DNA of 64,000 nucleotides from a virus. Position numbers and translations under genes: made by a program. Location: the IMG/VR virus record IMGVR_UViG_3300037483_001670, positions 64,001 through 128,000 of that record. One strand, 5' to 3'. The notes under the pieces were generated by a model. That model had not been told where the DNA came from. It saw nothing but the letters and a program-made list of their open reading frames with translations, and did no database searches. Shown here piece by piece: positions 13,500-38,160 of this stretch. Within the stretch, counting starts at the first letter, position 1. Each line of letters begins with the position of its first letter.

Positions 13500-13530
13500 G
13501 CCGGGCCCTCATTTGTGGGACATTTCGGAC

Positions 13531-13794: not shown

Positions 13795-13798
13795 CCCC

Positions 13799-14428
13799 AT
13801 GCAATTCACTCTCCCTACTGGCGAGGTCGCGTTCGTTTGCAAGAGCGCCGAGACGGACCCCGCTCAAGGCCTTGTCGTCGAGGAGACCGATATGACGCAG
13901 CCGACGCCGTTGCACGAAAAGACCTGGCTCGAAGAAAACCCGGACCGAGCGCAGATCTTTGAGGCGCTCCGAAGTCAGCTGCGCAGGCTCGTCGATGCCA
14001 TGGACGTGGGACCGCGTGCCCTCACCCAAATCGAACAGACTGCACGCCTTGGGCGCGAGCTCCTCGCCGTCGGAAAAGACCCGAATAGCATCGGCGCGAT
14101 CATGATGGCCAGCCAGGGCTACAACACGATGCAGGGCGCTGAGACCATCGGCATCGGAGACGGTTACGCGGCTACCGCGACGAGCGCGCCGGCCGAGACG
14201 TTCGGCACGTCGCTGATTCGCGAGCTCGTGGGTGCCATCGGCACCATCATGGCGCCGCGCGACCCCTCTCCGCCCACCGCGTACCCGCCGATGCTCTCCG
14301 AGCTTGTGCTCGCGATCGACGTCGCTCGCGCGAAGGGAATGACCGAGCTGGTCGAAAAGCTCGAGGCGCAGCTCCTGGCGCGGGCAGCGCCAGAGGAAGA
14401 CGAACCGAAAGGAGAGGTAGCGGCATGA
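13799..14428 (+). CDS. hypothetical protein
   Basis: Protein-like composition; coupled to the next gene. Confidence 0.55.
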   Translation: MQFTLPTGEVAFVCKSAETDPAQGLVVEETDMTQPTPLHEKTWLEENPDRAQIFEALRSQLRRLVDAMDVGPRALTQIEQTARLGRELLAVGKDPNSIGAIMMASQGYNTMQGAETIGIGDGYAATATSAPAETFGTSLIRELVGAIGTIMAPRDPSPPTAYPPMLSELVLAIDVARAKGMTELVEKLEAQLLARAAPEEDEPKGEVAA

Positions 14429-15399
14429 AGTGGTACATCCCCAGCTGGAACGGCGATCTCCGGCTCACGCCGAGCGCCAAGAACGATGACCACACGACGC
14501 TGACGATTCACCAGCCGACGCTCGCCGAGCGCCAGCTACTCGTGCAAATGGGCCGGGCGTTCGAAAAGCGAGGTTGGGTGCCGAGCTGGAAAGACCCGAA
14601 ACCGCAAAAGCTCTTCGGTCGTCCGACCAAGATCGAGCTCCGCGCGCCCCTCGACGAAGTCGGTCCGGTCGTGTCGAAGATCATGCGGCCCGGCAAAGCC
14701 GTGCTGACGGCGATCACGTTCATCGACGGACGCGTCGAAACGTGCAGCGGCTCGGAAGCCGATCTCGCGGAGCTCGCGAAGGGGGCGACCGCGGCACCCG
14801 AGGACAGCGCGCCCCGGGCGGCCGCGACCATAAAACGACCCACCCCCTCTTGCCCGCAGTGCATCCCGGGCGCCATCCTCCCTGCGTCGGAGGTGCTCCT
14901 CACATTCTTGTCACCTGAGCAGCACGCAAGCTGGGCACGTACGCGCTCGATCGTCGTCACCGGCGGCCTTTCCAAGCACCGCTACATCATCGCGCACCGG
15001 CACTCGCCGATCGCTCGGCGCTTCGGCCGCATCTGCTACGACTTCGATTCCAACATGGTCGTGCATTTTCACGACTGGACCGTGCCTCCCGAAGAAGAAG
15101 TGCTTGCCGCCAAGCTCATTTTGGAGCACCGCGAACCGTGGCTTCGCAACGAGGCCACGATGCTCTTGGACTTCGGCATCCTCGACACCTGCGGCGTCCA
15201 ACGGATCGTCCAGCGCGACCTGCGCGACCGGCAGCCAGTGTACAAAAACCCTTTCGGCGACGTGATGGACGGCGTCGCCGATGCCAACATGGCCCGCCGC
15301 GTCGGCGAGGCGGCGCTGCGACTCTTCGGGTCCGGTATCCAAGGGCCACCGGAGCAAAAGGCGACTCCGTCGACCGTTGCCCCGAAGGAGGTCCCGTGA
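14425..15399 (+). CDS. hypothetical protein
   Basis: GGAGAGG RBS, ATGA overlap, CPQC motif. Confidence 0.65.
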   Translation: MKWYIPSWNGDLRLTPSAKNDDHTTLTIHQPTLAERQLLVQMGRAFEKRGWVPSWKDPKPQKLFGRPTKIELRAPLDEVGPVVSKIMRPGKAVLTAITFIDGRVETCSGSEADLAELAKGATAAPEDSAPRAAATIKRPTPSCPQCIPGAILPASEVLLTFLSPEQHASWARTRSIVVTGGLSKHRYIIAHRHSPIARRFGRICYDFDSNMVVHFHDWTVPPEEEVLAAKLILEHREPWLRNEATMLLDFGILDTCGVQRIVQRDLRDRQPVYKNPFGDVMDGVADANMARRVGEAALRLFGSGIQGPPEQKATPSTVAPKEVP

Positions 15400-17225
15400 G
15401 CCTGTACATCGCGAAAAAGAAGGACTCGCTCGTCCTCCCGGATTCGACGGTCACCGAAAAGTTCGGAATCGTCGGGGCGAGCGGCTACGGCAAAACGCAC
15501 CTCGCCACCGTGCTGCTCGAGGAGATGCTCGAACAGCGGTTGCCGGTGGCCGTCATCGATCCCGAGGGCGTCTTCTGGGGCCTCGGGTCAAGCATCGACG
15601 GCAAGTCCCCCGGCTACAAGGTCATCGTTTTAGGAGGCAGCCACGGCAACCTCGACCTGAAACCGACCTCCGGGACCGCCATGGCCGAGCTCGTCGTCCG
15701 TACCCGGCAGCCGATGATCTTCGATCTCTCCAACTTCGACGACGAAGACGATGAAGCGCTGTTCGTGGCCGCCTTCGCGCAGACGCTCTACCAACGCAAC
15801 GGGATCGAGCGCCGTCCGATTCATCTCTACTGTGACGAGATCGACAAGTTCGCGCCCGAGCAGCCCATGTCGAAGGCCCAAATCGCTTCGACCAAAGCGC
15901 TCAAGAACGTCTTTCAGCGCGGCCGCGGGCGCGGCATCGGAGCCACCGCCATCACGCAGCGCCCGGCCGTCGTCAAGAAGGACATCCTCTACCAGGTACG
16001 TTGCCTCGTGACGTTCAATTTGCCTGGCCCGCTCGATCAGGACGCGATCTCGCGCTGGATGATCAAGCCGGCCAACATCGACAAGAAGGAGCGCGATCAC
16101 TTCTTGAGCACGCTCCCCAAGCTTCAGCGCGGGCATGCGTGGCTCTGGAGTCCGGCGTGGCTCAACGTGATGCAGCAAGTGGTCGTGCGCGAGCGCCGCA
16201 CGTTCGACTCGAGCAAGACCCCCGAGGTCGGCGCCAGCATGCTCACGCCGGTTCGGCAGGAAATCGATCTCGAAGCCATTCGCAGCATCATGGCCGAGCT
16301 CGTCGACCGCAACGAGCAAGACGATCCGACGACGCTCCGCGCGCGCGTTCGCGAGCTCGAGACCAAGCTAGCGACTCAGCCGAGCGCCCCCGCGCCGGCG
16401 CCCATCGTGAACAACGAGGACATGCGGTCGCTGTATGAGGCGCACACCGACGTCGTCAACATCGGAAACGTGGTGAGCAAGTTGGCCGGTGAGCTAGCGG
16501 TCTTGCACGACAAAATCGGCACGCTGCACCAGACCATTTCCGGCCGGATGGGAGGACAACCGATCGCAAAGATTCACTACCTCAACGAGGCCCACGAGCT
16601 TCCCCGTACGACCAAGGCGGCCGCGCGCCGCGAGCGGCGCGTCACGGCTGCGCCGACTGACAACAGCGGAGCTCGCGAAAAGTCGACGTCGAAGGTTGCT
16701 GCCGTTCCCGAGGAGCTCAAGGTGTTCCGCAAGGGCGAGCGCGACATGCTCATCACGCTCTACGACTTCGGCGGCCACCTTTCCCGCAGGCAGCTTGGCA
16801 CGATGGTCGGCATCAAACCGAAGGGCTCCACGATGGGCACGTACCTGACGACCCTGAAAAGCAACGCGGTCGCCACCTACACCATGGTCGACGTAACTTT
16901 GACGGACACCGGCAAGACGCTCCTCGCGAGGGTCTTGAACCGCAAACCGATGCCGCACAAACAGGACCAGCTCCTCGAAATCTGGCGCAAGAAGCTCCGG
17001 AAGGGCGAGCGCGACATCCTCGACACCGTCGTGCAAGCGCCGAACGGCATCACACGCAAAGACATGGCCGAAAAGCTCGACATCGCTCCGGACGGCTCCA
17101 CGATCGGCACGTACCTCTCCACGCTGCGTTCGAACGCTCTCATCAACGACGACGGCGAGCTGCTCACGATCGGCGACGCCCTGGCCATCTCTCGGGCGCC
17201 TCGGCGGCGCGCCAGCAACGCGTAA
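15396..17225 (+). CDS. HerA/DUF87-like P-loop ATPase with tandem C-terminal wHTH repeats
   Basis: GASGYGKT, VIDPEG, LYCDE, RGRGRGIG, TQRP; two RKGERD..GST.GTYL.TL.SN repeats. Confidence 0.8.
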   Translation: MSLYIAKKKDSLVLPDSTVTEKFGIVGASGYGKTHLATVLLEEMLEQRLPVAVIDPEGVFWGLGSSIDGKSPGYKVIVLGGSHGNLDLKPTSGTAMAELVVRTRQPMIFDLSNFDDEDDEALFVAAFAQTLYQRNGIERRPIHLYCDEIDKFAPEQPMSKAQIASTKALKNVFQRGRGRGIGATAITQRPAVVKKDILYQVRCLVTFNLPGPLDQDAISRWMIKPANIDKKERDHFLSTLPKLQRGHAWLWSPAWLNVMQQVVVRERRTFDSSKTPEVGASMLTPVRQEIDLEAIRSIMAELVDRNEQDDPTTLRARVRELETKLATQPSAPAPAPIVNNEDMRSLYEAHTDVVNIGNVVSKLAGELAVLHDKIGTLHQTISGRMGGQPIAKIHYLNEAHELPRTTKAAARRERRVTAAPTDNSGAREKSTSKVAAVPEELKVFRKGERDMLITLYDFGGHLSRRQLGTMVGIKPKGSTMGTYLTTLKSNAVATYTMVDVTLTDTGKTLLARVLNRKPMPHKQDQLLEIWRKKLRKGERDILDTVVQAPNGITRKDMAEKLDIAPDGSTIGTYLSTLRSNALINDDGELLTIGDALAISRAPRRRASNA

Positions 17226-18088: not shown

Positions 18089-18985
18089 GTGACCGCAGCC
18101 GCACCGACCGATCCGTCGCCGACCAGCGCTCCGCACCCTTTCCTTAAGTGGGCAGGGAGCAAACGAGCGTCGGCCGCTGCGATCCTCGACGTGCTCCCCG
18201 AGCGCATCGTGAACTATTACGAACCGATGCTCGGCGGGGGAGCCGTCTTCTTTGCCCTCCGCGCCGCGGGGCGCATCGACGGCACCCCGCACCTCACCGA
18301 CATCAACGCCGAGCTCGTCACCACGTTTCGGATCGTGCGCGACGAAATCACGCCGCTGATCCGCGAGCTGTCGCAGCACGCCTACAGCCGCGACGTCTTC
18401 GAGGCCTGGAAAGCGAAGGATCCCACTCTTTTGACCCCGCTCGCCTGCGCCACACGTATGATCTACCTGAACCGGACGTGCTTCAACGGGCTCTACCGGC
18501 TGAACATGGCCGGGCGCTTCAACGTGCCGTTCGGGCGCTACACCAATCCGACCATTTGCCAGTCCGGACCGCTCCAGGAGGCTTCGAACGCGCTCCGCGG
18601 CGCCGCGCTCGCCGTGGGCGACTACCGGGGCACGTACGTTATCCTCGAGCCAACCGAGCCGTGGCTCTTCCAAGAGCCCGCCACCGGCGACGCGGTCTAC
18701 TTCGATCCGCCCTACGTCCCCCTGTCGCACACATCGAACTTCACCAGTTACACCCAAGGGCGGTTCGGTAGGAAGGCACACGAGGCTCTGGCGACGCGGT
18801 TCGCCGAGCTCGCCCAACGGGGCGTCGCCGTGGCCTTGAGCAATTCCGACACCCCATTCACGCGTGAACTGTACCGCGGCTTCCAGGTGCGCAGCATCAT
18901 GGTGCGGCGGGCCATCAACAGCCGAGCCGCCAAGCGTGGCGCCGTCGGTGAAATTCTCGTGACAGCCAACTGTCGCGGCGACTAG
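18089..18985 (+). CDS. dam: Dam-family DNA adenine methyltransferase
   Basis: FLKWAGSK, YYEPMLGGGAVFF, YLNRTCFNGLYR, YFDPPY. Confidence 0.93.
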   Translation: MTAAAPTDPSPTSAPHPFLKWAGSKRASAAAILDVLPERIVNYYEPMLGGGAVFFALRAAGRIDGTPHLTDINAELVTTFRIVRDEITPLIRELSQHAYSRDVFEAWKAKDPTLLTPLACATRMIYLNRTCFNGLYRLNMAGRFNVPFGRYTNPTICQSGPLQEASNALRGAALAVGDYRGTYVILEPTEPWLFQEPATGDAVYFDPPYVPLSHTSNFTSYTQGRFGRKAHEALATRFAELAQRGVAVALSNSDTPFTRELYRGFQVRSIMVRRAINSRAAKRGAVGEILVTANCRGD

Positions 18986-19031: not shown

Positions 19032-19739
19032 ATGACCGAGACAGAGCCGCAGCCCATCTTTTCGGCCGTACGCATGGAGATCGATGTCAGTCCGACCTGG
19101 TGGCCCAAAATCCATCACCGGCGGGGCGGCGCGTTCAGCGTCACGCTCTCCGCGCTCATCCAGATTCTCGACCGTCGAAAGCTCGAGCCGCTCGAGCTCC
19201 GTGCCAACGAAGACAGGATCGTCGTGGTCCTCGCCGTCGGACTCGACGTCGAGCCGGGCGAATACCAGAGCCACGCCGTGCAAATCCGCGCCGCACTCAC
19301 ACTCGCAGTCACGATCGAGCCAGAAGACGACTTTCACATGGATCTCCAGTTTGTAGAGGTGGGCGAGTCCGAGGCCGCTCGGCAGTCGACGACCCGCCGC
19401 GAGCTCGAGGAAGTGCTCCGCAAATGCGGCTTCGTGCAGGGAGCTTCGGCGGCGCTCACCGCTCACAAGTACAAAGAGATCGGCGACAATGACATTTGGA
19501 CACTGCCCACGGGCAGCCGCTGCGTGCAGTTCGACGAGGACACGACGATCGACATGGTCGGCACGGCGCGCTGGATGGACGCGACCGGCGAAAAAATCTA
19601 CACGTTCGACACGATCGTCCAAAATCTCGCCGCGTTGCTTCGAAAGGCCGAAGAGACAAATCCGGTGACCCCGGACGAAAAGTCGGCGGCCGGCATCCTA
19701 CCTGGCAAGGGTAGCGTGAAGGGCGGCATCTTCGCCTAA
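19032..19739 (+). CDS. hypothetical protein
   Basis: GGGAG RBS. Confidence 0.65.
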   Translation: MTETEPQPIFSAVRMEIDVSPTWWPKIHHRRGGAFSVTLSALIQILDRRKLEPLELRANEDRIVVVLAVGLDVEPGEYQSHAVQIRAALTLAVTIEPEDDFHMDLQFVEVGESEAARQSTTRRELEEVLRKCGFVQGASAALTAHKYKEIGDNDIWTLPTGSRCVQFDEDTTIDMVGTARWMDATGEKIYTFDTIVQNLAALLRKAEETNPVTPDEKSAAGILPGKGSVKGGIFA

Positions 19740-20449
19740 TGGCCACGCTCGACGCCGAGATGCCGGTCACCCGCGCGGAGCTCGAAGAGACGCTCCGCGC
19801 GGAGGGCTTTCAGCAGACGTCGCCGCACGTTTGGTGCAGCCAGGACCGCACGAAGTTCGTGTCGTTTCCCGAGGACACGTCGGGCGAGGCCATCTACGGC
19901 GACTCGGAGATCGGCGAGCCGGGCCGAACCATACCCATCGCTGCGGCCCACCGCGTCGTGCGAGGCGAGCTCCTCTTGGACTCGCCGCTCGGCGTCTCGC
20001 CGATGCAGCATCCAGCGGAGCGTGCCCTGAGCGGCCGGGCGCACCGCGAACTGCCGCCAATCATCGAACGGCCGCTTTTGCGATCGAGCCACGTCCGCGT
20101 GCTCTCGTCGTCGAACCCGCCGCCCAACGTCCACGATGCCGAGTTCGTCGAAACTGTCCCCGCGCCCAAGCCCGAGCCAAATCCCGTGGTGGAGGGCATG
20201 ACCTTCGAGCGCGCGGTACAGAGCGAGATGCGCGCACGCATCAGCGAGCTCCAAGCGAGCAAGGGGCGCGTGCACGGCTTTCTCATCGGGATTGTCGCGG
20301 GCGCCCTCGCGCTGACGGCTGCCATTTGGATCGCGTACGGGATCGTCGTCCATCGAACGCCGGAGCGTGACCACGACGTCCTTCTGAGCGGAGCCGTCGT
20401 CGCGACGATCGCGATCATCCTCTACGCTCGCCACTTCCACGATCTCTGA
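19739..20449 (+). CDS. hypothetical membrane protein
   Basis: TAATG overlap; two C-terminal hydrophobic helices. Confidence 0.6.
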   Translation: MATLDAEMPVTRAELEETLRAEGFQQTSPHVWCSQDRTKFVSFPEDTSGEAIYGDSEIGEPGRTIPIAAAHRVVRGELLLDSPLGVSPMQHPAERALSGRAHRELPPIIERPLLRSSHVRVLSSSNPPPNVHDAEFVETVPAPKPEPNPVVEGMTFERAVQSEMRARISELQASKGRVHGFLIGIVAGALALTAAIWIAYGIVVHRTPERDHDVLLSGAVVATIAIILYARHFHDL

Positions 20450-20450: not shown

Positions 20451-21032
20451 ATGGCGCTCAACGACATCCCTACGCCGATCGCATCGGACACGTCCATTTG
20501 CGTCGACGACGACTGCCCGCTCCCTGAGCACAGCGGCGAGTGCCCGACCGAGCGCACGCTCGAGATGTGGCGCACCGAGGCCCAGCGCTGTCGGGCGATG
20601 ATCGGCCGGCTCCTCAACGATCTCCGCCGCCGGGACGAAATCATCGAAGCGTACCGTCAGAAGACCGACTGTCAGAAGACCGATGCTCCGCGCCTCGGCG
20701 AACTCTGGACCGGTGGCCCCAACAGCTGCAACGCCGGCGCCGAGGTCGTGTTCATCTACATGAACCACAATCCTTACTCGGTCCATGCGGTCGTGAAGCG
20801 CATCAACGGCCCGTGGTCCATGAACCGCGTCGCCTTCTGCGGGTGCGAACCGTACATCGGTCCGATCGGCTGGTCCGGTGCGCCTCCCCCCGACGTGACA
20901 CTCTGTCGCGTTTGCGCCACCCAGGTCGATCTCTGCGCAGATGGAACGTGGCGCGTCAGGACGAACGCACCGTCCCGCATCAACCGACGTTGGACGTACA
21001 CCCCTTCGAGCTCCTTTTACAGGGACGACTGA
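20451..21032 (+). CDS. Cys-rich hypothetical protein
   Basis: Operon context; several Cys clusters. Confidence 0.55.
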   Translation: MALNDIPTPIASDTSICVDDDCPLPEHSGECPTERTLEMWRTEAQRCRAMIGRLLNDLRRRDEIIEAYRQKTDCQKTDAPRLGELWTGGPNSCNAGAEVVFIYMNHNPYSVHAVVKRINGPWSMNRVAFCGCEPYIGPIGWSGAPPPDVTLCRVCATQVDLCADGTWRVRTNAPSRINRRWTYTPSSSFYRDD

Positions 21033-21304
21033 TGCCGAAGAAGACCGACGTCACCAATGAGCTGCTCCAGCTGCGGCACGCCGCCAGGGCCGTGCTCCGC
21101 TACCTCGACGGACCCGACAATGGTCATTGCCGCGCGTGCCAAGCGTTCATCGGAGAATGCCGGCCGTCGTGCGTGCTGTGGAAGATCCGCGTAGCCACCG
21201 GTCGACTCAAGTGCAAGCACGAGAACGGCACGTACCGCGGCGACATGTTGATGCACTGCTCCGATTGCGGGGCGCGCGACTTGAGAGGAAGCAATACCCC
21301 ATGA
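21032..21304 (+). CDS. small Zn-binding hypothetical protein
   Basis: TGATG overlap; CRAC, CKH..CSDCG. Confidence 0.55.
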   Translation: MPKKTDVTNELLQLRHAARAVLRYLDGPDNGHCRACQAFIGECRPSCVLWKIRVATGRLKCKHENGTYRGDMLMHCSDCGARDLRGSNTP

Positions 21305-22692
21305 AACGGCTTGAGCCTCGCGACTACCAACATACCGGCGTTGTCAGCACCATAGCCTACCTAAAAAAACGCAAGAACGTCTTGCTTGTCTCGCCTGGCG
21401 GAAGCGGCAAAACGGTGATGATCGCCATGCTCGCCGCGAGGTTGCGCAAGATGCACCTCCGCGTCCTCATCTTGGCCCAGCGCCGCGAGCTCATCCAACA
21501 GGCCTACCGCCACCTGCAAGGCATCGGACTACCTGACAACACGTTTGGGGTCATCATGACCAGCCCGGACGAAGACCACATCCGACCGGGTGCTCCTATT
21601 CAGATCGGAAGCAAGCAGCTTTTCGACTGCCGCACCGATCTGCCGACGTACGACGTTGTCCTCGTCGACGAAGGCCACCACGTCACCGCTCCAGGCTACC
21701 AGCGCATCGTTATGCGCAAGGGCGTCCTCCGCGTTGGCTTCACTGCCACGCCCGAGCGATACGACGGCGCCGGGCTCAGCGCCTTTTACGATGTGATGAT
21801 CGAAACCGCCAAACCACGCGAACTCGTCGATCGTGGCTACTTGGCTCGCCCGCGCATTTTCACAACGCTCGACGAGCTCCTACCGGATCTCTCCGAGCTG
21901 CGCCCCACGGTCAACGGTGATTACGCCGTCTACCGGCTCGGCCACCTGGTCGACAAGGGCGTCCTCCTGGGCAACATCGTGGACAACTACGCGCTACACG
22001 CCAGCGGCCTCTCCATGAGCGTCCACGCCACAAACGTCGCGCATTCGCGCCATCTAGTCGATCGCTTTGTTGGGAGTGGCGTAACCGCAGCTCACATCGA
22101 TGGCGACACGTCGGTCACCGATCGAGATCGCATCGTGCGACTTGCTCGGCAACGCCGCATTCTAATTCTGTCGAGCTGCATGGTGTTCAGCGAAGGAATC
22201 TCGCTTCGCGAGTTTCAAGGAACCATCATGGCCCGGCCAACGCGCAGTCTGACGCTCTACATGCAGCAAGCCAATCGCGCGATGCACCACAAGGGCAAAG
22301 ACCGGCCCATTATTCTGGACCACGCTCGCAACGTGCTGTACCACGGCCGCCCCGATGCCGACCGCGAGTTCACCCTCGAAGATGGACAGGTGAAACCGCA
22401 AAGCAAGGCAAAACACCCACCCGTGAAGGTCTGCGGTGAGTGTAACGCCGTCAACCTGCCCAGCGCCACCGCGTGCGAAGAGTGTGAACATCCATTTCAT
22501 GCGTCGACCATCCCCCAGGAAACGGACGCCGTCCTGAGGGAGATGACGTTGGCGGAGGTTCGGAAACTGAAGAAGCGTCTCGCTGCTTACGGCAAAAAGC
22601 AGGGATGGTCTGCCACGCACGTCGCGACGTGGGTCAACAAAGTCCTGAAACAATGGTGGTCCGAGCGAGGGCTCACCCCCATGCAGACGTAA
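21301..22692 (+). CDS. SF2 (DEAH/ResIII-like) helicase with C-terminal Zn ribbon
   Basis: GGSGKT, VDEGHH, FTATPER, RPTRSL.LYMQQ..R, LDH..N, CGEC..CEEC. Confidence 0.9.
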   Translation: MKRLEPRDYQHTGVVSTIAYLKKRKNVLLVSPGGSGKTVMIAMLAARLRKMHLRVLILAQRRELIQQAYRHLQGIGLPDNTFGVIMTSPDEDHIRPGAPIQIGSKQLFDCRTDLPTYDVVLVDEGHHVTAPGYQRIVMRKGVLRVGFTATPERYDGAGLSAFYDVMIETAKPRELVDRGYLARPRIFTTLDELLPDLSELRPTVNGDYAVYRLGHLVDKGVLLGNIVDNYALHASGLSMSVHATNVAHSRHLVDRFVGSGVTAAHIDGDTSVTDRDRIVRLARQRRILILSSCMVFSEGISLREFQGTIMARPTRSLTLYMQQANRAMHHKGKDRPIILDHARNVLYHGRPDADREFTLEDGQVKPQSKAKHPPVKVCGECNAVNLPSATACEECEHPFHASTIPQETDAVLREMTLAEVRKLKKRLAAYGKKQGWSATHVATWVNKVLKQWWSERGLTPMQT

Positions 22693-24026
22693 ACGTGGCC
22701 GCCGCCAAGTCGCTCGGCTATGGACCTAGGCCCATTTGCAAGGTTAAGCATTGGCGTTTGGTGAGCCCAGTACCATCAGGCCGCCGATATGGAAGCCAGT
22801 GTACGTACACCTGGCGATGCTCGCGATGCGACGCAACGCATGAGCTGACCCTCGGCGCTGCGCGTGGCAATCGCTGCCCAACCTGCGTCCGTCGTCAGAT
22901 CGACAACAAAGTACCGAAACGAATTGGCACATTCGTATTAATCGACCGCGCAAGCGTTCCGCGAACGCTACCGAACGGCCGACGCCAACGCGTGTGGAAA
23001 TGGCGTTGCGACCAATGTCACCGCATCAGCCTTAGCACCGTCACTTACAGGAAACTCCGCAGGTGTGCTTGCACCGTCGGGCCTCCTCGGCCACCGTCGC
23101 GCATCGGCACCTACGCATTGGACAGCACCACACCAGCCAACAGGAAGCATGGAGCTGCCCTTTACCGGTGGACGTGCACCGTTTGCAATTCCACAATCGT
23201 CTGCAACACGAGCCGCGCCAGAGAAGGATGCACACTCTGTCGATCGCGCCAGCGTATCAAGGCGCAGCTGTCAGATGCCTCCGGCTCGTCTTTACTGCGG
23301 CTCGTATCGGACGTTCCTGAGCGCACCACTTCGCGTTTGGTGGTTTTCACCTATCAATGCAAGGCTTGCGGTAGGTATAAGAAACAAACACCACGCGACA
23401 CGCGCGCAGGTGTAGGCTGCCGGTCGTGCAGGGGCGCGCACAGAGTAACCATCGCCGACCACGCGACGCCGCTCCCGTTGGCCGCTAAACTATTCGGCCT
23501 CGCACGTGGTGTTGTGTCGTGCCGTGCACGCAAGGGCCTACTTGGAATGAGCTTACTAATGCCGCTGACTCGCTCGAAAACTATCGTGCATGCTCCGCGC
23601 ACCGGCAGCTACAACATCGCAGGCCACAACCTAACCATCAATGCCATCGGCAACCTGTTCGACGTTCGTCCAGAAACCATGGCCAGTAGAGTCCGCCGAG
23701 GCATGTCGCCGCTGCAAGCTGCTACTGCGGTTCACCACAAAATGTTTAGAGGTGAGCGGCCCAAGCTTTCCGCCACGCCCGATGCAACGCTGGCAGGTGC
23801 GATCACGAAACGCCTAACCAAGTTTGCGCTCACTGTTGGGCTGTCTCAGAATTGGGTACGGACGACCATGGAGCAGTGGTGGACCGAACGACGTCGGCGG
23901 ACCGCCCTGGCCAGGCGCGCCAAGGAGGACAAGAGGAACGCTGCACGACGTGCTCGAGCTGCTCGCCGCCGAGCGCAACGGACGGCAGCGCGACTCGTGA
24001 TCTACAAGTCGGAGCGCCACACTTGA
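22605..24026 (+). CDS. multi-Zn-ribbon and HTH-repeat DNA-binding protein (true start probably downstream of 22692)
   Basis: Four W/YxCxxC...CxxC units, two HEG-type HTH segments; more A/T-rich than its flanks. Confidence 0.6.
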   Translation: MVCHARRDVGQQSPETMVVRARAHPHADVNVAAAKSLGYGPRPICKVKHWRLVSPVPSGRRYGSQCTYTWRCSRCDATHELTLGAARGNRCPTCVRRQIDNKVPKRIGTFVLIDRASVPRTLPNGRRQRVWKWRCDQCHRISLSTVTYRKLRRCACTVGPPRPPSRIGTYALDSTTPANRKHGAALYRWTCTVCNSTIVCNTSRAREGCTLCRSRQRIKAQLSDASGSSLLRLVSDVPERTTSRLVVFTYQCKACGRYKKQTPRDTRAGVGCRSCRGAHRVTIADHATPLPLAAKLFGLARGVVSCRARKGLLGMSLLMPLTRSKTIVHAPRTGSYNIAGHNLTINAIGNLFDVRPETMASRVRRGMSPLQAATAVHHKMFRGERPKLSATPDATLAGAITKRLTKFALTVGLSQNWVRTTMEQWWTERRRRTALARRAKEDKRNAARRARAARRRAQRTAARLVIYKSERHT

Positions 24027-24084
24027 GCCGCAATAACGGCCACCTTTTCCCTTAGGCCTCACTTCGACTAGACTGTCAGAACGG

Positions 24085-27000
24085 ATGACCGCTGCCCTCG
24101 CCACCGTTCCCGCCGAGCTCCACGGCCGCGCGCAGTTCGCACTGACGCAGATCGCCGAGGCGTGGCGCCGCGACACCCACGGGACGCAGTACGTCGAGGC
24201 CCTGAAGACGTTCCTCTTCGGCCTGCCGAGCCGCAACACACGCGCGCAATACAGCCGATCGATCAACGAGTTTTTCGAGTGGTACGAGCGCGAGAAGGGG
24301 CGCATTCCGGTCCCGGGCGAGGTCCGGCGAGAGGACGCGATCAAGTACGCCGATTGGCTCCGCACCCGCACCGTCGGGCTCGAGGAGCATCGTCTCAAGA
24401 AGGACACGACCCGCCGGCTCGATCTCGCGATCTACCGCCTCGTGAAAGCGTCGCCCGGCATCCGCGTTGACACGATCCGCGGCCACCTCCTCGCCAGCCC
24501 CGAGTTCACGGTGCTCGCCAAGATGCGGCCGAACGCGGCGGCCGCGTCGCTCGATCGCGTGCTCAAGATCGAAGAAGCCAGCCCCGACGGGCTCGATCGG
24601 CACCTCGGCTGCCTCGTCTCCATGCGCGTGCTCGAGCGCTCGCCGTCGATCGACGACATCCGAATGGGCCGCTTCATCGTGCCCGGGCTCGACATACCGA
24701 GCCGGGCGCAGATCGAGTTCCGCGTGCCCGAGATGACGTTCGCATACCGCGTCGCGGCCCACGATGAGCCGACGGGTGCAGGGCGCGCGAGCACGATCAA
24801 GATCCGCCTCACGGCGCTGAAAAGCTTCTGGAGCTACCTCATTCGGTCCGGCGAAAACGTGCGCGGGATGACCGATCCGCTCCTGAAATACAACATCTGG
24901 GAAGCCGGCACGGCGCAAGCCTCCAGGGAAGCGAAGGCGCAGCAAGCCGTGAGCCGGTCGCTGAAAACGCCGGACATGGAGATCTTCAATCGCCTGCTCG
25001 GCACGACGTACCGAACGAGCAGCGAAGATGGAATGGTGCTGCCGTCGCGCGATCTCGAGGACATCCGCGACCGCGCGATCCTGCTCTTTCTCCTCTACAT
25101 CGCGAGCCGGGCCGAGGAGCTCGTCACGATCCAGCGAACGGACGTCGTGTGGGGTCCCGAGCCGCTCGTGTCGATCCTCGGCAAGGGGCAAAAGAAGCGC
25201 CTCGTGCGCATCCCGGACCCGGCCTACCAAGCGGTGCTCGATCTCACCGCCAAGCTCGAGGAGCTAGCCGACCAGGCCGAGCGCTCGCGCCCGACCGAGA
25301 TCGCTCCCGCGCGGCGCCTACTCGCCCCCGACGCGCCTCTCTTTCCGCCGACGTCGCGCTGGGGATGCAACGCCGACATCAACCGAAGGAAAGAGCTGCC
25401 TCCGATCCTGCCGGCGCTCGATCGCACGGCCATCTACAAGATGCTGCACCGGCGCGCGGAAGAGACCGGTTTTGCGCGCGGATCGCACGAGTTCACGCGG
25501 TCGCACCCGCACGGCTTCCGGCATCTCGCCGCCCAGCTCGCGCGCGACGCCGGCACCCCCCTTCCCATCATCCAGGCCGTGCTCGGCCATTCCTCCCTTT
25601 CGACCACCGGCACCTACACCGAAGCGCGCGACCCGAACAGCGTGATCCTCTTCGGTTGGAGCCCCCCCCAGATCGTCGGCGGGTCGCCCGCTGCTCCACC
25701 CGGCGCGCCCATTCCGCCGCCCACGGCGCGCCCAATTGTCACTCCGGCACCTCCGACACCCGAGCGCCCGCGCCCCCCCGTGAAGGTCGTTCAGACGGTC
25801 GGAACGCCGGTTCCGGAGCCCATCCCCGCCGCGCGTCCGCCGGCTCCCCATGACTGGCCCGTCGCGCTGCCGCCGCCTCCTCCGCTGCCTCCGGATCCGG
25901 AGCCCATGCCCGACGTCGCGCCACCGCCGGAGGAGCGCCTGGTCGCCGTCGGAGCCACGCCTGAATCGCTCTTCGAGGAGGACCAGCGCCGCACCGCGGC
26001 CGAGCTCGATCGCATCTACGAGACCAACTGGGGCGAGGCCCGTGGCGGCGAGCAACTGCGCACCGGCAAGAAAGTCCCGGGCGACGAGGCCTACGACACG
26101 CTCATCCGCACGACGGCGGGGCGGCGCTCGGGGCTCGTGTGGTGGGCGGGCCCGACGGGACGCCTTCAGCTCAGCATGCCGGTGATGTCGCCCGGCCAGG
26201 TTATCGGCGAGGAGACCGTGTACGGCTCGGTTCGGGAGCGGCTCGGCGAGCTCTGGACGCATTGGATGGATCTCGACGACGACGCCCGCGGGCCGACGGC
26301 CGCGTTCGCGCTCCTCGCATGGGTGCGCGATGCGCTCGAGGTCTCCTACGACGTCGCGAGCGAAGTCGAGGTCCGCCAGGGCGAGTGGATCGGCTACCTT
26401 GCCCCCATCGAAGCGACCGCGCGCACCACCGGCAAACGGCGCATCTTTCGGGAGCACCGCGACGATCGCATTGCTGACTGGTTCGGAACGACGGCGTGGC
26501 AGCATCGGATCTCCCGAGGCCGAACGGCCACCGGGGGGCGCCCTCCGCGCGTCGTTGACACCGTGCTCGACGTCCCAGCGTGGTACCAGCTCGCCGATCC
26601 GCTCGCCGAGCTCAGCGACGCCGACCGACGCGATCTGTTCGACTGGATCCGCGTGCTCACCGGCCGGCCCCCCGTCGATCCGACCGTCCGCTACAAGGGC
26701 GCATCTCGCAAGGACATCGGAGGCCTCATCGGCCTCATGTGCACCTACGACGCGAATCGCGCCGAGCTCCGCCGCGCGCAGCACGCCGGCGAGCGCGAGG
26801 CCCTGCGCGATCTGAAGCACAGCGTCGAGCAGGATCGCGAGGCCGTGAACCTGGTCGTGCAGAGCATGCGCAACCTGAAGTTCGACATCCGCGCGGCCGT
26901 CGACGAACGCGTGCAAGGCACCCGTCAACGGATGGAATCCGAGTCCATCCGCAAGGCGGCCGGCGAAGAGGACGACGACGAGAGCTCACCGCGGGAGCGC

Positions 27001-27717
27001 CGTGAGGGCAACCGCAAGTTCTACCTGCGGGTCATCGGTGATCTGTTCGGGCCCGAGGCGGCCGCGGACGACATCCTCGCCCTCTTCGCGTACTGCAACC
27101 AGGAGGATGCCCCCCTTTCCGGCTGGCTGTATCCCCAACTTTTTCACATCCAGGGGAAAACGATCGTGCACTCGCCCGAGTTCGCGAAACAGTTCGCGCG
27201 CGAAACCGGCGGGGCGCACAGCGAGTGCGTGGCCCGCCGGATGGCCCGCGAGCTCTGGGAGCTCCGGCAGAAGCAGCGCGAGGCCGAGATCGCCGGCAGC
27301 ACCGCGCCGCGCCTCATCCAGCGCCCGGACGAGCTCCTCGAGTGGCTCCACGCGATGGCGTTCTTCAAGATCCCGTGTCCCCGCGAGCTCGAGACGGAGC
27401 TCCGCGAGCGCATCGCCGATCGCACGCCGGTGCCGGTCTACGAGGAATGGCAGCGCTGGCGCCAGCAGATCGAAGAGCGGTTCAGCAAGGAACGCTCGGC
27501 CGTGCGCGCCGCACGCGCGCAGGAGCAGACCCGCCACGTCGGCATCCTGGAAGAGTTTGGTGAGGCGGCCGAGAAGTACCGCGAGGCCGTCCAGCGCGAC
27601 GCCCGCGCCACCGAGTTCGAGCCGAATGCGCGCGCGAAGGAGTACCGCTACCAGCCCAACATGCGCCGGTTCGTGCCGAGCCCCGTCGCGCTCCTCTTCT
27701 GCGTCTACGCGAGATAA
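24085..27717 (+). CDS. giant tyrosine recombinase (1210 aa)
   Basis: Catalytic set R342 (ASRAEEL), K367, H476-x-x-R479 (PHGFRH), H502 (LGH), Y511; about 700 aa follow the catalytic Tyr. Confidence 0.9.
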   Translation: MTAALATVPAELHGRAQFALTQIAEAWRRDTHGTQYVEALKTFLFGLPSRNTRAQYSRSINEFFEWYEREKGRIPVPGEVRREDAIKYADWLRTRTVGLEEHRLKKDTTRRLDLAIYRLVKASPGIRVDTIRGHLLASPEFTVLAKMRPNAAAASLDRVLKIEEASPDGLDRHLGCLVSMRVLERSPSIDDIRMGRFIVPGLDIPSRAQIEFRVPEMTFAYRVAAHDEPTGAGRASTIKIRLTALKSFWSYLIRSGENVRGMTDPLLKYNIWEAGTAQASREAKAQQAVSRSLKTPDMEIFNRLLGTTYRTSSEDGMVLPSRDLEDIRDRAILLFLLYIASRAEELVTIQRTDVVWGPEPLVSILGKGQKKRLVRIPDPAYQAVLDLTAKLEELADQAERSRPTEIAPARRLLAPDAPLFPPTSRWGCNADINRRKELPPILPALDRTAIYKMLHRRAEETGFARGSHEFTRSHPHGFRHLAAQLARDAGTPLPIIQAVLGHSSLSTTGTYTEARDPNSVILFGWSPPQIVGGSPAAPPGAPIPPPTARPIVTPAPPTPERPRPPVKVVQTVGTPVPEPIPAARPPAPHDWPVALPPPPPLPPDPEPMPDVAPPPEERLVAVGATPESLFEEDQRRTAAELDRIYETNWGEARGGEQLRTGKKVPGDEAYDTLIRTTAGRRSGLVWWAGPTGRLQLSMPVMSPGQVIGEETVYGSVRERLGELWTHWMDLDDDARGPTAAFALLAWVRDALEVSYDVASEVEVRQGEWIGYLAPIEATARTTGKRRIFREHRDDRIADWFGTTAWQHRISRGRTATGGRPPRVVDTVLDVPAWYQLADPLAELSDADRRDLFDWIRVLTGRPPVDPTVRYKGASRKDIGGLIGLMCTYDANRAELRRAQHAGEREALRDLKHSVEQDREAVNLVVQSMRNLKFDIRAAVDERVQGTRQRMESESIRKAAGEEDDDESSPRERREGNRKFYLRVIGDLFGPEAAADDILALFAYCNQEDAPLSGWLYPQLFHIQGKTIVHSPEFAKQFARETGGAHSECVARRMARELWELRQKQREAEIAGSTAPRLIQRPDELLEWLHAMAFFKIPCPRELETELRERIADRTPVPVYEEWQRWRQQIEERFSKERSAVRAARAQEQTRHVGILEEFGEAAEKYREAVQRDARATEFEPNARAKEYRYQPNMRRFVPSPVALLFCVYAR

Positions 27718-27725: not shown

Positions 27726-28160
27726 ATGTCTGCTGTGTTCATTAAGCCGTTCAAGGAACTCACGCCAAGTGAAGTTGTGCAACTGAAGCGGTTGACACGC
27801 ACAAAAGGCTCGATGAGGGCCGAACTTTCGATCGGCAGAAAACCTCACGAGAAACAGGAATTTACCGCTGTTTTTTACAAAGTACGCAACCAGATCGTTG
27901 CTTGGTGGAGCGTCGCTAAGGCACCCAAAGGAACGGTCTTCGTCAATGCCTTCACGCACCACATGTATCGAGGCAAAGGGATCGCGCAGGATCTCGGACG
28001 ATGTGTGATCACTTGGGTAGCTCGACAATACGGCAAGGGAACCCAATTGGTGGCGTACCCGTACGACGACGCCGGCGCGAACCTCTACAAACGTCTCGGG
28101 TACACCCCCGATCCGAACGGAAGGACTTGGTCTCGTTTGACCAGTGGGGCACACACGTGA
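27726..28160 (+). CDS. GNAT-family acetyltransferase
   Basis: HMYRGKGIA acetyl-CoA motif, ANLYKRLGY. Confidence 0.75.
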   Translation: MSAVFIKPFKELTPSEVVQLKRLTRTKGSMRAELSIGRKPHEKQEFTAVFYKVRNQIVAWWSVAKAPKGTVFVNAFTHHMYRGKGIAQDLGRCVITWVARQYGKGTQLVAYPYDDAGANLYKRLGYTPDPNGRTWSRLTSGAHT

Positions 28161-30539: not shown

Positions 30540-31001
30540 TCAGGCTTCCTCGCGCTCTCGCGAAGCCACCGGCTCCGGCGGGTCCGAAAAGACGGGTCTC
30601 CGCCCGGTGGCCCACACAGGCTCCATGCTGATCTCGAAGCTCCACCCGGAATAGTGCGAGCTCACGTAGGCGACGACCTTAACGTGCTGGCTTTTCTCCA
30701 ACATCGCCTTCAGCTTGTCATCGAAACAGCCCATACCGCCCGCCTCGACCGACGCGCGAACCTCTTCCGATGCCCCCTCGATCGCCGCTGCGCGCGTCGT
30801 GAAAAGGTGCACGTATTCGTGGCGCGAGGTGTGCCCCATCGAAACGATGTTGCGCGTCGTCTTGAGCTCCCACACGTGGAGCGCCGACTCGTCAGGCTCG
30901 AACATCAAATCGCCCGCTTTGCGCTTCGCCACCAGCTGGGCATGCCGTTTGGCCGATTCCTCGGCCACCACCGCCAACGTCGCACCTCGCGCCGTCTTCA
31001 C
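30540..31001 (-). CDS. hypothetical protein
   Basis: GTG start overlapping the uvrD stop (GTGA). Confidence 0.55.
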   Translation of the reverse strand: MKTARGATLAVVAEESAKRHAQLVAKRKAGDLMFEPDESALHVWELKTTRNIVSMGHTSRHEYVHLFTTRAAAIEGASEEVRASVEAGGMGCFDDKLKAMLEKSQHVKVVAYVSSHYSGWSFEISMEPVWATGRRPVFSDPPEPVASREREEA

Positions 31002-34000
31002 GGCAGCGCCCGATCGTTTCGCACGTTGAGCCGCATCGCCGCTCGTTCCTTCTGCTCGTACTCGTACTGCGTGATCCACACCCGGTGCTGCTCCGGCAGA
31101 TCGTCGAGAAACACGCTCGGGTCGCTCGTGACGATCTGCCCGTACCGCAGGCGCCGGGCGCAGTACGTCAGCCAAAGCTGCCGGCGCGCGCGGGTGATGG
31201 CCACGTACGCGAGGCGCCGTTCCTCGTTCTTGTCGGGCGCGAGGACCGCGTTCTGGTGCGGGAACACACCCTTTTCCATGCCCACGATGAAAACGTAGTC
31301 GAACTCGAGCCCCTTCGCCGCGTGCACGGTCATCAGCACCATCTTCGCTTCCGCGTCGGCCGAGTCCTGATCGGTCAGCAGCGCCACCTCCTCCAGGTAC
31401 CCGAGCACCGTCGGGGTTTCCCCAACATTTCCCATGCGCTTTTCGTAGTACGCGATCGATTCCACAACTTGGTCACAGTTTTTCGCCCGCTCCTCCGCGT
31501 CCTCCATCGCGCGGGTCGATTTCGCACCGATCGCCTCCTCGAGCCACATGGCCTTGTACCGAGTCTCCTCGATGAGCATCGCGGCCATGTCGCTCGGCCG
31601 CATGTTCATCGTCCTGCCACAGAGCCCTGACATGATCTCCTTGAACTTCGTCAGCTGTTCACGTTCCTTCAGGCGGATGTCGGGCGACCACGCCGCGTGA
31701 TCGAGAGCTTCCCACATGGAGACCTTCTTACGCTTCGCAACTTCCCTCAGTTTCTTCACAGTGCCGGCGCCGATGCCGCGGACCGGTCGGTTGATGACGC
31801 GGATGAGGTCGACGTCGGAGTTCGGCTTGGTCGCGAGGCGCAGGTACGCGAGCACGTCGCGCACCTCCTTGCGCTCGTAGAACGAATGCCCGCCGACGAC
31901 CACGTACGGGATCGCCGCCAGGCGGAGCTCGTCCTCGATCGGCCGCGAGAGCGAATGCGACCGGTAGAGCACCGCCATGTCGCCCGGCGCCGCGCCGGCC
32001 TTGATCAGGAGCCTCGCCCGGTCCTTCACGAACGTGCCCTCTTCCCGATCGTCTGGGCACTCGATCACCGTCACCCGCGGCCCGTCCGGGTTCGCGGTCC
32101 AGAGCGACTTCGGTTCCCGGCCCTCGGCCACCTCGATGACGGCGAGGGCCGCGCCGACAATGTGCTTCGTCGATCGGTAGTTCTGCTCGAGTTTGACGAT
32201 CCTCGCGTCGGGGAAGTCCGTCTTGAACCCGAGGATGATCGACCGGTCGGCCCCGCGCCACGAATAAATACCCTGATCGTCGTCGCCAACCACGCACACG
32301 TTGCGCTTAGCTCCAAGGGCGCGCACCAGGCGGTACTGGGTCATGTTCGTATCCTGGAACTCGTCGACCATGACGTGCTCGAACCGGGCGCGGAGATCCA
32401 TCCCAATCTCGTCCTCGCGCTCGGCGAGCCGCATCATGTTAACGATGAGATCCTCGAAGTCGAACGCGTCGCCGTACTGAAGCCAGTCCTCGTACTGAAT
32501 CCAGATCTCCCGGAACCGCTCCTCGTCCTCGTCCATCGGGTTGATGTCGTGCGGCCTCAGCGCCTTCTGCTTGCAAAGGCCGATCTTTTCAAGTGTCTCG
32601 CCGAGATCGACCACCTTGCGGTCGATCTTCATGTCGTCGAGCACCTGCTTCAGCACCACCTCCTGCTCGTCCCGCGTGTAGATCTCGAAGGACGGTGTTC
32701 GCTGGACGTGCTGCGCGCGCTTCCGCAGCCCCGCCGCGCAGACCGAGTGGAACGTGCCCGACACGAGCCCCCGCGTCGCCCCGGGCGCCACCTTGTCGAT
32801 CCTGTGGCGCATCTCCGCCGCCGCCTTCTTCGTGAAGGTAACGAGCAGCATCGCGCCGGGCCGGACGCCCTGCTGCAAGAGGCGCACGGTGCGGGCGGTG
32901 AGCGTCTTGGTCTTGCCACTGTTGTGCGTTACCGTAAAATCGTCGAGCAGGTACCGACCGTCACCCTCGATCGAAAAGCCGCAATATCGTCCACGGCCCA
33001 CAGGCTCAACGGATTTGACGCCGGTACGCAGAACGTTCTTTTTCTGACGCCGCGGAGAGGCCATCTTCCTGCGGATTCGACATGGCACCGCCGACGTGTC
33101 CCCGGAAATGCTGACACGGTGGTACGTCCCACCGTGGCCGTTCTGGTCGTGCTTCTCGCACGCCCTCACGTAAGCGGCCAAGCCCACACTGCGAGACAAA
33201 AAAGCAACATCGTCCGCCAACTGCTTCGACTTATTGATCCAGTCGTACCCGTTGGCGTGCAAGTGCCCATCCGTGTCGAGCAGGCCGGCCAACACATGCA
33301 ACCGCACCGCTCGCGAGCCTTTCAGGTAGGGAGGCGGGACAAATCGGAGGTCGCTCCGCAACTTATACAGCCCCAGCTCACGCAATTCGTTGATGAGCTG
33401 ATTCGGATGCGCGTACCGACCCAAACGTGGTCCACGGTAACTGATGCCGTACGATCGCGACGACGGTCGAGGGTTTTCGTCCACCCTCACATGCAACCCA
33501 TACCTGCGCGCCTGCTTTCGCACCTCTCGATGAATCTCCACGTCTGGTTTCGACACGGCAACGCCAGCCCCCATCGAGCCATCGCCCAGAAGAACTCCTA
33601 AAAAGTACGGCTCCACCGTCACCTTGCCAGAGTCGCCGTGAAATACCGCAACCGGCGCCCTAAGAAGCTTGCTCTCCACTCTCCTCTTCTTGGACAACTT
33701 GAACCAATCGCGCACCTTCACATCGAACACACGGCCAGTCGTCGTGTCGACCAACGTCAGCACGTGCTGATCGTTCACCACGAACGCAGCCCCTTTTACC
33801 GGCGTTACCCGAAACATCGGAGCACGCCCCGCAACGGTACGCAGCACTTGCCTCTCAGTACCGTCCCAGCCCATTACACGATCGCCGACCATCACCGCGG
33901 CAGCGCGCTTGACGGAGCCATCCGACATCATGATGCCCTGATTGGGCTCGTGACACCCGGCGCCCGCAAAGATGAGCAGCGGCCCCGTCGTGTGCATGGC

Positions 34001-34036
34001 CGCCTCGCGCTGCGGCTCGTTCAGCTCGGCGAGCAT
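30998..34036 (-). CDS. uvrD: UvrD/PcrA/Rep helicase containing an intein
   Basis: LNEPQREA, AGAG|SGKT, TFTKKAA, VDEFQDTN, VGDDDQGIYSWRGA, LEQNYRST, MTVHAAKGLEF, EERRLAYVAITRAR. Confidence 0.96.
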   Translation of the reverse strand: MLAELNEPQREAAMHTTGPLLIFAGAGCHEPNQGIMMSDGSVKRAAAVMVGDRVMGWDGTERQVLRTVAGRAPMFRVTPVKGAAFVVNDQHVLTLVDTTTGRVFDVKVRDWFKLSKKRRVESKLLRAPVAVFHGDSGKVTVEPYFLGVLLGDGSMGAGVAVSKPDVEIHREVRKQARRYGLHVRVDENPRPSSRSYGISYRGPRLGRYAHPNQLINELRELGLYKLRSDLRFVPPPYLKGSRAVRLHVLAGLLDTDGHLHANGYDWINKSKQLADDVAFLSRSVGLAAYVRACEKHDQNGHGGTYHRVSISGDTSAVPCRIRRKMASPRRQKKNVLRTGVKSVEPVGRGRYCGFSIEGDGRYLLDDFTVTHNSGKTKTLTARTVRLLQQGVRPGAMLLVTFTKKAAAEMRHRIDKVAPGATRGLVSGTFHSVCAAGLRKRAQHVQRTPSFEIYTRDEQEVVLKQVLDDMKIDRKVVDLGETLEKIGLCKQKALRPHDINPMDEDEERFREIWIQYEDWLQYGDAFDFEDLIVNMMRLAEREDEIGMDLRARFEHVMVDEFQDTNMTQYRLVRALGAKRNVCVVGDDDQGIYSWRGADRSIILGFKTDFPDARIVKLEQNYRSTKHIVGAALAVIEVAEGREPKSLWTANPDGPRVTVIECPDDREEGTFVKDRARLLIKAGAAPGDMAVLYRSHSLSRPIEDELRLAAIPYVVVGGHSFYERKEVRDVLAYLRLATKPNSDVDLIRVINRPVRGIGAGTVKKLREVAKRKKVSMWEALDHAAWSPDIRLKEREQLTKFKEIMSGLCGRTMNMRPSDMAAMLIEETRYKAMWLEEAIGAKSTRAMEDAEERAKNCDQVVESIAYYEKRMGNVGETPTVLGYLEEVALLTDQDSADAEAKMVLMTVHAAKGLEFDYVFIVGMEKGVFPHQNAVLAPDKNEERRLAYVAITRARRQLWLTYCARRLRYGQIVTSDPSVFLDDLPEQHRVWITQYEYEQKERAAMRLNVRNDRALP
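32921..33955 (-). mobile_element. 345-aa intein with LAGLIDADG endonuclease, inserted in the UvrD Walker A
   Basis: Begins with Cys (CHEPNQG), block B VNDQH, FLGVLLGDG and LAGLLDTDG, ends THN with +1 Ser; removing it restores GAGSGKT. Confidence 0.95.
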
Positions 34037-34353
34037 CAGTGGACGCGGACGAAGCCGAGCAGGTGGTACCCGGTGACCTCCGGATCGCCATCGCCGAAAT
34101 TGACGACGATCTCGTAGCACTCGTCCGGCGGCATCCCGACGGAGAGATCGATCGCCCGCTCTTCGAGCTCGACGCTGTGCTTGCCCGCGTCGAATGGCAC
34201 CGGCGAGCCCTCGATGTCGGCCTCGAAGCCATCCAGCACCGTCTTCATGGCGTGGAGCGCCTCAGCCTTCGTCGCGAACACGCCCTCGAGCTCGAGCGTG
34301 ACCTCGTTGTCGTCGTCCTCATCTGCGTCCGTATCCGTCACCAGCACGTACAT
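34036..34353 (-). CDS. acidic hypothetical protein
   Basis: AAGGGAG RBS; TGATG overlap with uvrD. Confidence 0.6.
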   Translation of the reverse strand: MYVLVTDTDADEDDDNEVTLELEGVFATKAEALHAMKTVLDGFEADIEGSPVPFDAGKHSVELEERAIDLSVGMPPDECYEIVVNFGDGDPEVTGYHLLGFVRVH

Positions 34354-37374: not shown

Positions 37375-37428
37375 GTGCCGAAAAGCCGCCTTTGCGACGC
37401 GGGATCGGGCGTGCCAGGTTCATCCAGG

Positions 37429-37614
37429 ATGAACGCGATCCGACTCGAGAAGAAACGACGGGTGCGCGGCGCACGCTTGGTGCGCCGCCTCCTGCGCCGG
37501 GGACACGACAATGCTGGCCGTTGGTTTTGGCTTGGTCGGGTCGCCTTGAATCCGTGGCTTACGATACCCAACGAGGCCTACGCGTACTTGTGGGCGTACC
37601 TGCGGATCCGCTGA
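37429..37614 (+). CDS. cassette mini-ORF (61 aa)
   Basis: Starts 11 nt after a motif; its stop begins the next motif. Confidence 0.55.
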   Translation: MNAIRLEKKRRVRGARLVRRLLRRGHDNAGRWFWLGRVALNPWLTIPNEAYAYLWAYLRIR

Positions 37615-37662
37615 TTTTTCGCCTTTGTGAATCGCCGGAGCGCGTGCCACGTCTGACGGACC

Positions 37663-37881
37663 ATGGCGAAGTCGACGCGAGCGTACCCCCTTCCGAGAGT
37701 AGAGAACGACCCGCGCTTCAATTTGGGGCTGCTCCTTGCGGTCGCCGAAGTTCTCGAAGCGAAGGGATTTCCCAAGCCAGACGCTTACGACTTCCCCGAT
37801 CTCTCGGTCGCGCTCTTTCGTTTCCTCTACCGAGATGAAGCCGCGGAAGCCGCGACGAAGGTTCCTGGCGAAGGGCGCTGA
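37663..37881 (+). CDS. cassette mini-ORF (72 aa)
   Basis: Bounded by motifs on both sides. Confidence 0.6.
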   Translation: MAKSTRAYPLPRVENDPRFNLGLLLAVAEVLEAKGFPKPDAYDFPDLSVALFRFLYRDEAAEAATKVPGEGR

Positions 37882-37926
37882 TTTTTCGCCCTTGCGGGTC
37901 GAGCTCGCGCGTTTCACGATCGCCAG

Positions 37927-38115
37927 GTGCCTAGCTGCGAATGCGAGGATTTTCGTTCGGAACGACCCGCGGGGCAAAAGTTTGCCGTATGTGGAGATCC
38001 AGCTGAATGGCGGCGCGACGACAACGGGCCAGGCCCGCCCAACATCTGCACCAAGCACGCGGAGACGCTTCGGGCCGCCGGGCTTGCCGTGGTCAAACCC
38101 AACCCGTTGAACTGA
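37927..38115 (+). CDS. cassette mini-ORF (62 aa, Cys-containing)
   Basis: Bounded by motifs on both sides. Confidence 0.55.
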   Translation: MPSCECEDFRSERPAGQKFAVCGDPAEWRRDDNGPGPPNICTKHAETLRAAGLAVVKPNPLN

Positions 38116-38160
38116 GTTTTCGCCTTTGCGGAGCGCCTGCGGGCGTGCCAAGCCTTCGAC

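Follow-up and report, generated by a model that had tools for sequence, protein, structure and literature searches.

What might a virus do with a tyrosine recombinase four times the usual size? Few DNA enzymes have been studied as thoroughly as the tyrosine recombinases, whose prokaryotic members (Xer proteins, Cre and the phage integrases) measure about 300–450 amino acids (aa). The window analyzed here is a stretch of 64,000 nucleotides (nt) that covers positions 64001–128000 of the 182,423-bp IMG/VR virus record IMGVR_UViG_3300037483_001670 (hereafter G000; CheckV completeness 73%, classed linear), and it harbors at 24085..27717, on the plus strand, the gene of a giant tyrosine recombinase of 1210 aa (P0001). 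We found that P0001 belongs to a family of large viral recombinases that is conserved from end to end, and its context tentatively suggests a role in keeping the viral genome at unit length.

The open reading frame (ORF) at 24085–27717 (+) maintains 1210 open codons, with GC contents at the first, second and third codon positions of 0.70/0.50/0.87, the pattern of a real gene in a genome of 64% GC; the assignment as a recombinase draws on this ORF, on Pfam and on six full-length homologs. A putative −10-like hexamer, TAGACT (24069..24074, +), was read from the sequence 10 nt 5′ of the ATG, and TAnnnT boxes were observed at the equivalent place 5′ of the gene in relatives. The Pfam family Phage_integrase (PF00589) was matched at residues 325–515, scoring 52.2 bits where the cut-off is 27.1. 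In a residue-by-residue alignment, R342, K367, H476, R479, H502 and Y511 of P0001 fall on R148, K172, H244, R247, H270 and Y279 of Escherichia coli XerD, so that the intact catalytic set noticed in an earlier sequence-only reading of this DNA is borne out by both the domain match and the alignment. These six residues lie in a catalytic domain encoded at 24973..25644 (+) and are invariant in 36 of 36 diverse family members. The same reading had remarked on a K-to-HxxR distance longer than that of the Xer enzymes, and the alignment agrees, with 109 residues from the lysine to the histidine in P0001 versus 72 in XerD. The extra segment between K367 and H476 (25282..25422, +), about 37 residues beyond XerD in the alignment, carries a conserved W426-G427 pair; it was modeled by AlphaFold2 with low confidence at residues 422–445 and, searched alone, matched no PDB sequence, that of IntI4 included.

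Ahead of the catalytic domain lies a core-binding (SAM-like) helical domain in two parts, as is expected of a ‘simple’ tyrosine recombinase. The N-terminal helices and the first part occupy residues ~14–97 (24124..24375, +), where a sub-threshold Pfam piece (SAM_4, residues 50–95) and helices in the AlphaFold2 model were found, and the second part occupies residues ~233–296 (24781..24972, +), with a sub-threshold SAM_1 piece at residues 234–255 and an invariant W249. The interruption between them, which the sequence-only reading had already described, is a nested winged-helix domain (residues ~98–232; 24376..24780, +) whose key residues are kept throughout the family. In VIA, residues 32..277 match the N-terminal domains of integrases. 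The AlphaFold2 model of residues 1–525 has a mean predicted local distance difference test (pLDDT) score of 65.6, and a Foldseek search with this N-terminal-half model returned XerD, XerA, XerH, IntI4 and Cre as top matches. Arm-binding domains are absent from P0001. Judged by its residues, P0001 is a catalytically intact member of the tyrosine recombinase superfamily, of the ‘simple’ Xer/Cre type.

The remainder of the protein has no such counterpart. Behind the catalytic domain follows a Pro-rich linker of variable length (residues ~525–615; 25657..25929, +), which is probably disordered according to the alignment and pLDDT values below 50, and 3′ of it a conserved C-terminal region of 595 aa, in which several segments were recognized. 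Module C1 (residues ~640–865; 26002..26679, +) contains the invariant residues Y645, W686, P699, W746, R789, H791, W799 and D838. It is followed by a charged segment, helical hairpin or coiled coil, of variable sequence (26680..27039, +) and by module C2 (residues ~986–1125; 27040..27459, +), delimited by family conservation, with the motif TIxH...SECVARRxARxLWE...PCP. Besides the C1 residues, R1052, R1055 and P1097 of the C-terminal region are invariant in the 36 members, and the SECVARR motif of C2 recovered family members in scans of sequence collections. The extreme C-terminus (27652..27714, +) is a conserved tail of approximately NARxx-[LVM]P-x-P-hydrophobic-x-hydrophobic-hydrophobic-[FA]A, deduced from the tails of 99 full-length members, with P1198 and P1200 conserved in at least 90%. 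The AlphaFold2 model of the C-terminal half is poor (pLDDT 47.5). The C-terminal ~600 aa gave no match in PDB sequences, Pfam, PHROGs, NCBIfam or the ESM Atlas, in line with the sequence-only reading, which had recognized no motif there, and an hhalign comparison of the two halves of P0001 revealed no internal duplication.

This arrangement is not peculiar to one record. Six full-length relatives of 1147–1239 aa share 42–66% identity with P0001 over ~100% of its length and are conserved from end to end, with only the Pro-rich linker varying in length among them. A search of 1.84 billion proteins with a profile of the C-terminal 595 aa retrieved 141 cluster representatives; almost all of the complete ones measure 1085–1618 aa and carry the C-terminal region at the equivalent place, while the short profile matches cluster with full-length proteins labeled ‘integrase’ and are thus fragments. 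Phage_integrase is present in every one of the 36 diverse members mentioned above (20–46% identity to P0001), and it is their sole Pfam family. The concern that the C-terminal region might be a separate gene fused by a sequencing error was therefore set aside, since the fusion of recombinase and C-terminal region is kept in all full-length relatives. The proposal of a new multidomain recombinase class also gains support, given a layout common to the 141 representatives and a C-terminal 600 aa that match no known family. Searches of phage and plasmid collections disclosed no relative beyond a weak match to a Fischerella integrase, and the literature on large or giant tyrosine recombinases and on jelly-roll viruses with recombinases held nothing relevant on such a family.

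Among the known systems, XerC, XerD and XerA gave the best matches (NCBIfam XerA 71 bits, XerC 65.5 and XerD 57.7; PDB XerD E 4e-17). They share with P0001 the R-K-HxxR-H-Y set, the two-domain ‘simple’ layout, the SAM-like core-binding domain and the lack of an arm-binding domain. However, the equivalog cut-offs of XerC (TIGR02224) and XerD (TIGR02225) stand at 335.15 and 329.6 bits, well above the scores of P0001, which is four times longer, is encoded by a virus and possesses the nested winged helix, the ~37 extra K-HxxR residues and the 600-aa C-terminus. A Xer enzyme would also be accompanied by partners, whereas G000, which may be incomplete, yielded a single Phage_integrase match and neither a second Xer nor an FtsK. 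The closest functional analogy is Cre of phage P1, likewise a phage-encoded simple tyrosine recombinase, which cyclizes and resolves its own genome; Cre structures are among the Foldseek and VIA matches, a likeness of fold only. Cre has 343 aa and lies beside loxP, whereas P0001 has 870 further residues and no known site. In sequence, this family departs from the known tyrosine recombinases by its nested winged helix, its longer catalytic loop and a conserved C-terminus of 600 aa that bears the tail motif.

The family is a single-copy recombinase in a clade of large (~110–180 kb) uncultivated bacterial viruses. Exactly one Phage_integrase match was found in each of 12 records (G000 and 11 relatives), and in about 20 loci of relatives the surroundings of the recombinase are viral on both sides. 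One scan of IMG/VR added 12 further viral loci, while two scans of one genome from each of 185,579 prokaryote species gave one relative, on a 2.8-kb contig of a metagenome-assembled genome (MAG) holding only the gene; these scans used conserved peptide patterns of the family and might overlook its more distant members. In the window, the gene sits in a viral replication/repair block, and the block is shared: an orthologous SNF2 helicase gene lies ~3–10 kb from the recombinase in nearly every relative locus, a UvrD gene is often close, and Rad50/SbcC-like, HerA-like and Dam genes are common nearby. On the size of these viruses, one relative record of 47,084 bp (G001, locus L012) is rated 13% complete by CheckV, so genomes of several hundred kb are expected for some clade members.

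From this context, and by analogy with Cre and Xer, we tentatively favor P0001 as a resolvase or cyclase acting on the virus's own genome, at a confidence somewhat short of even. The enzyme would act on a circular or terminally redundant viral genome, presumably replicated by the host polymerase together with a viral DnaB-like helicase. The large viral recombination toolkit would readily turn such a circle into multimers, and the recombinase would resolve these, or cyclize incoming DNA, at one site to give unit-length genomes. The winged helix might add to the recognition of that site, and docking or control of the enzyme might fall to the C-terminal region through its conserved tail peptide. 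Consistent with such a genome form, the relative G011 (143,727 bp, 100% complete) begins and ends with the same 123 bp, an exact direct overlap that lies in unique sequence, so its map is circular or terminally redundant. In the 182 kb of G000, no match to a family A, B or C DNA polymerase was detected, and a DnaB-like helicase is encoded at 164935–165600 of G000; a helicase of this type in a genome with no detected polymerase fits replication of a circle by the host polymerase.

Several observations weigh against this assignment. The function has been read from context and analogy alone, and the ~600-aa C-terminal region has no explained role and would be superfluous for a simple resolvase. 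The record itself is classed linear and as 73% complete. The first 126 nt of G000 recur at 182294–182419, 4 nt from its end. They may mark the overlap of a circle, or else a repeat within the genome at which the assembly broke off; the repeat lies in low-complexity coding sequence rich in Pro and Gly and is an ambiguous sign of the topology of G000. No conserved dyad was found in the flanks of the recombinase gene across eight loci, and palindrome scans of G000 and G011 gave no unique shared site of the lox or dif type. Our restraint reflects the missing site, the unexplained C-terminal 600 aa and the ambiguous end repeat of G000. Separately, an AT-richer palindrome resembling GTTACGATCGTRCTAGTACGATCGTAAC (best copy with 11-bp arms and a 6-bp centre) occurs in about seven copies: at 6445, 35967 and 47055 of the window and at 50994, 59177, 60061 and 129514 of G000. 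The three window copies are intergenic, mostly between transcription units, and no copy was found in G011; the palindrome may be an operator or promoter element.

Other roles were considered for the enzyme. Database names point to a lysogeny integrase, which would integrate the virus at an att site of a host chromosome: the best PHROG matches are ‘integrase’ families, relatives are labeled ‘integrase’ by JGI, and IMG/VR counts one relative record (G007) as a provirus. We nevertheless regard integration as unlikely because the family is nearly absent from the 185,579 species genomes, where no host-flanked copy with att repeats appeared, and because the flanks are viral on both sides even in the ‘provirus’ record (locus L023), as they are in a MAG-binned contig (L043). 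The intergenic space beside the gene is tiny and without a dyad, the gene lies within a replication/repair module and the protein has no arm-binding domain; the label ‘integrase’ is probably misleading for this family. A telomere resolvase (protelomerase), which closes the ends of a linear genome into hairpins, would also be a large enzyme of the tyrosine-recombinase type encoded by a phage or replicon, since TelK, TelN and ResT are enlarged by extra domains flanking the core, and a place in the replication module would suit it. Yet the core of P0001 is clearly Xer-like and ResT-TelK_cat (PF16684) matched neither P0001 (E up to 1) nor G000 (E up to 0.1). No tel palindrome was found, the best palindrome in G000 being one with 14-bp arms inside a motif array, and G011 closes on itself by a direct overlap with no inverted repeats. 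A telomere function is, for these reasons, very improbable. Still less credit is given to a regulator with a recombinase fold, such as the MrpR repressor of SPbeta or the SroF repressor of phi3T, as the invariance of all six catalytic residues in members so diverged from P0001 argues for retained catalysis. Genome processing coupled to particle assembly, in which the C-terminus and tail would attach the enzyme to proteins of the capsid, membrane or core and site-specific resolution, instead of a terminase, would set the unit genome to be wrapped, is also rather unlikely, a shade more so than integration. It would account for a large, conserved, non-enzymatic C-terminus behind a flexible linker and for an end peptide conserved family-wide, and neither Terminase_6N nor FtsK_SpoIIIE was matched in the 182 kb of G000, a record that may be incomplete, so the absence of a terminase is not shown. 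Evidence of protein contacts is lacking, however, and the gene lies in the replication module, outside the structural one. Slightly less probable again is the fuller proposal that, in these viruses with no apparent terminase, the recombinase defines the unit genome while its C-terminus and tail tie resolution to the assembling particle or core. We know of no virus in which site-specific recombination is coupled to encapsidation; if the proposal were true, such coupling would exist in large bacterial viruses.

The sequence-only reading had instead put forward P0001 as a candidate enzyme for a cassette array 10 kb away, which would make it an integron-like recombinase moving mini-gene cassettes. 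The array consists of 12 co-oriented copies of a bipartite motif (37387–39954, +) and begins 9.7 kb from the recombinase gene, with several genes, UvrD among them, in between. The K-to-HxxR spacing of 109 does resemble that of the integron integrases IntI1 and VchIntIA/IntI4, and IntI4 (2a3v) aligns to the catalytic domain with E 1.2e-9 in a search with the family profile. However, the integron integrase model TIGR02249 scored 19.6 bits against a cut-off of 265, and the extra segment, similar in length to that of IntI but modeled with low confidence, showed no similarity to IntI4 when searched alone. The integron-like reading is not supported. Features of the array itself also count against the link. 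Its motif is composed of a T-run, CGCCyTTGyG, 14 nt and GyGTnyCA, without an inverted-repeat core or arms and without inverted R/L boxes. In most copies the stop codon of the preceding gene lies at or just 5′ of the T-run, and a small ORF with no Shine-Dalgarno sequence starts mostly 10–13 nt 3′ of the motif, which hence stands before each ORF and not after it, and no attI or attC lies beside the recombinase gene. The full form of the motif occurs nowhere else in the genome, and in its simplest reading it looks like a promoter for near-leaderless early small genes. In two samples the Logan contigs break off within the array, at 37.9–38.5 kb, and in the contig of a related strain one motif is joined to another with different sequence in between, so the gene content of the array varies between strains; accessory genes flanked by promoters would explain this variability as well as cassettes would. 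Nor were homologs and arrays seen together in the loci covered: the exact motif is absent from seven loci (L001–L007) and repeat scans of the loci of six relatives revealed no comparable array within 10 kb. The proposed link between recombinase and array is not supported and is very improbable, on a par with the telomere function. By the features tested, the recombinase is not a member of XerC/D, IntI or the telomere resolvases.

A family of recombinases four times the usual size is thus fixed in a clade of large, poorly understood viruses with no detected DNA polymerase or terminase. Knowledge of its site and of what the C-terminal region does would reveal how these viruses maintain and transmit genomes of 110–180 kb, and the family might also provide a recombinase that recognizes its site, or is controlled, in a new way.

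The block around the gene begins with an SNF2 helicase (4358–6100, −) and a thymidylate synthase (8145–9149), followed by a Rad50/SbcC-like gene (11355–13499, +), a HerA-like ATPase (15138–17225, +) and a Dam methylase (18089–18985). From 11355 to 17225 (+), the Rad50/SbcC-like gene, two unassigned genes without a Pfam match and the HerA-like ATPase stand in succession, a gene order that recalls the archaeal rad50-mre11-nurA-herA end-resection operon. A conserved upstream neighbor of 236 aa, of no known family, is encoded at 19739..20449 (+); in loci L003 and L004 its gene immediately precedes that of the recombinase, and in the window three ORFs intervene, namely an ORF of 193 aa (20451–21032, +), a ResIII/DEAD helicase of 521 aa (21127–22692, +) and an ORF of 473 aa (22605–24026, +) that weakly matches an endonuclease PHROG. 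The stretch that holds them (20451–24026, +) has a lower GC content (0.60) and may be an insertion, as it parts the recombinase from a neighbor that is adjacent in L003 and L004.

Downstream, a GNAT gene (27726–28160) is followed by a conserved neighbor of 163 aa (P0148; 28396..28887, +), also of no known family, with no Pfam or PDB match and 12 relatives in total. Homologs of P0148 were located downstream of the recombinase in L002, L003, L004, L007, L010/L012 and L013. In L002, L004 and L010 the two genes are adjacent or separated by one small ORF; two small ORFs stand between them in L007 and a TnpB gene in L003. The last of these (L003 10888–12174, −) is TnpB/Cas12f-like (OrfB_IS605, Cas12f1-like_TNB), lies between the recombinase and the 157-aa neighbor of that locus and has a 24-nt direct repeat on either side (10919 and 12191). 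In L043 (8771–12379), the recombinase was called as two ORFs of 396 aa and 792 aa (~1190 aa together), reflecting either a frameshift or a natural split, and the 792-aa part is the protein MBW2672367.1 of a Deltaproteobacteria MAG at NCBI.

Further along the window, the UvrD-type helicase gene (30998–34120, −) bears an intein, with Hint and LAGLIDADG homing-endonuclease domains at residues ~60–340 ahead of the helicase core, while its 681-aa homolog in L002 has no Hint or LAGLIDADG match. At 49688–63099 (−), 23 transfer RNA genes are packed into 13.4 kb, all on the minus strand and with small ORFs between them, a very large set for a virus.

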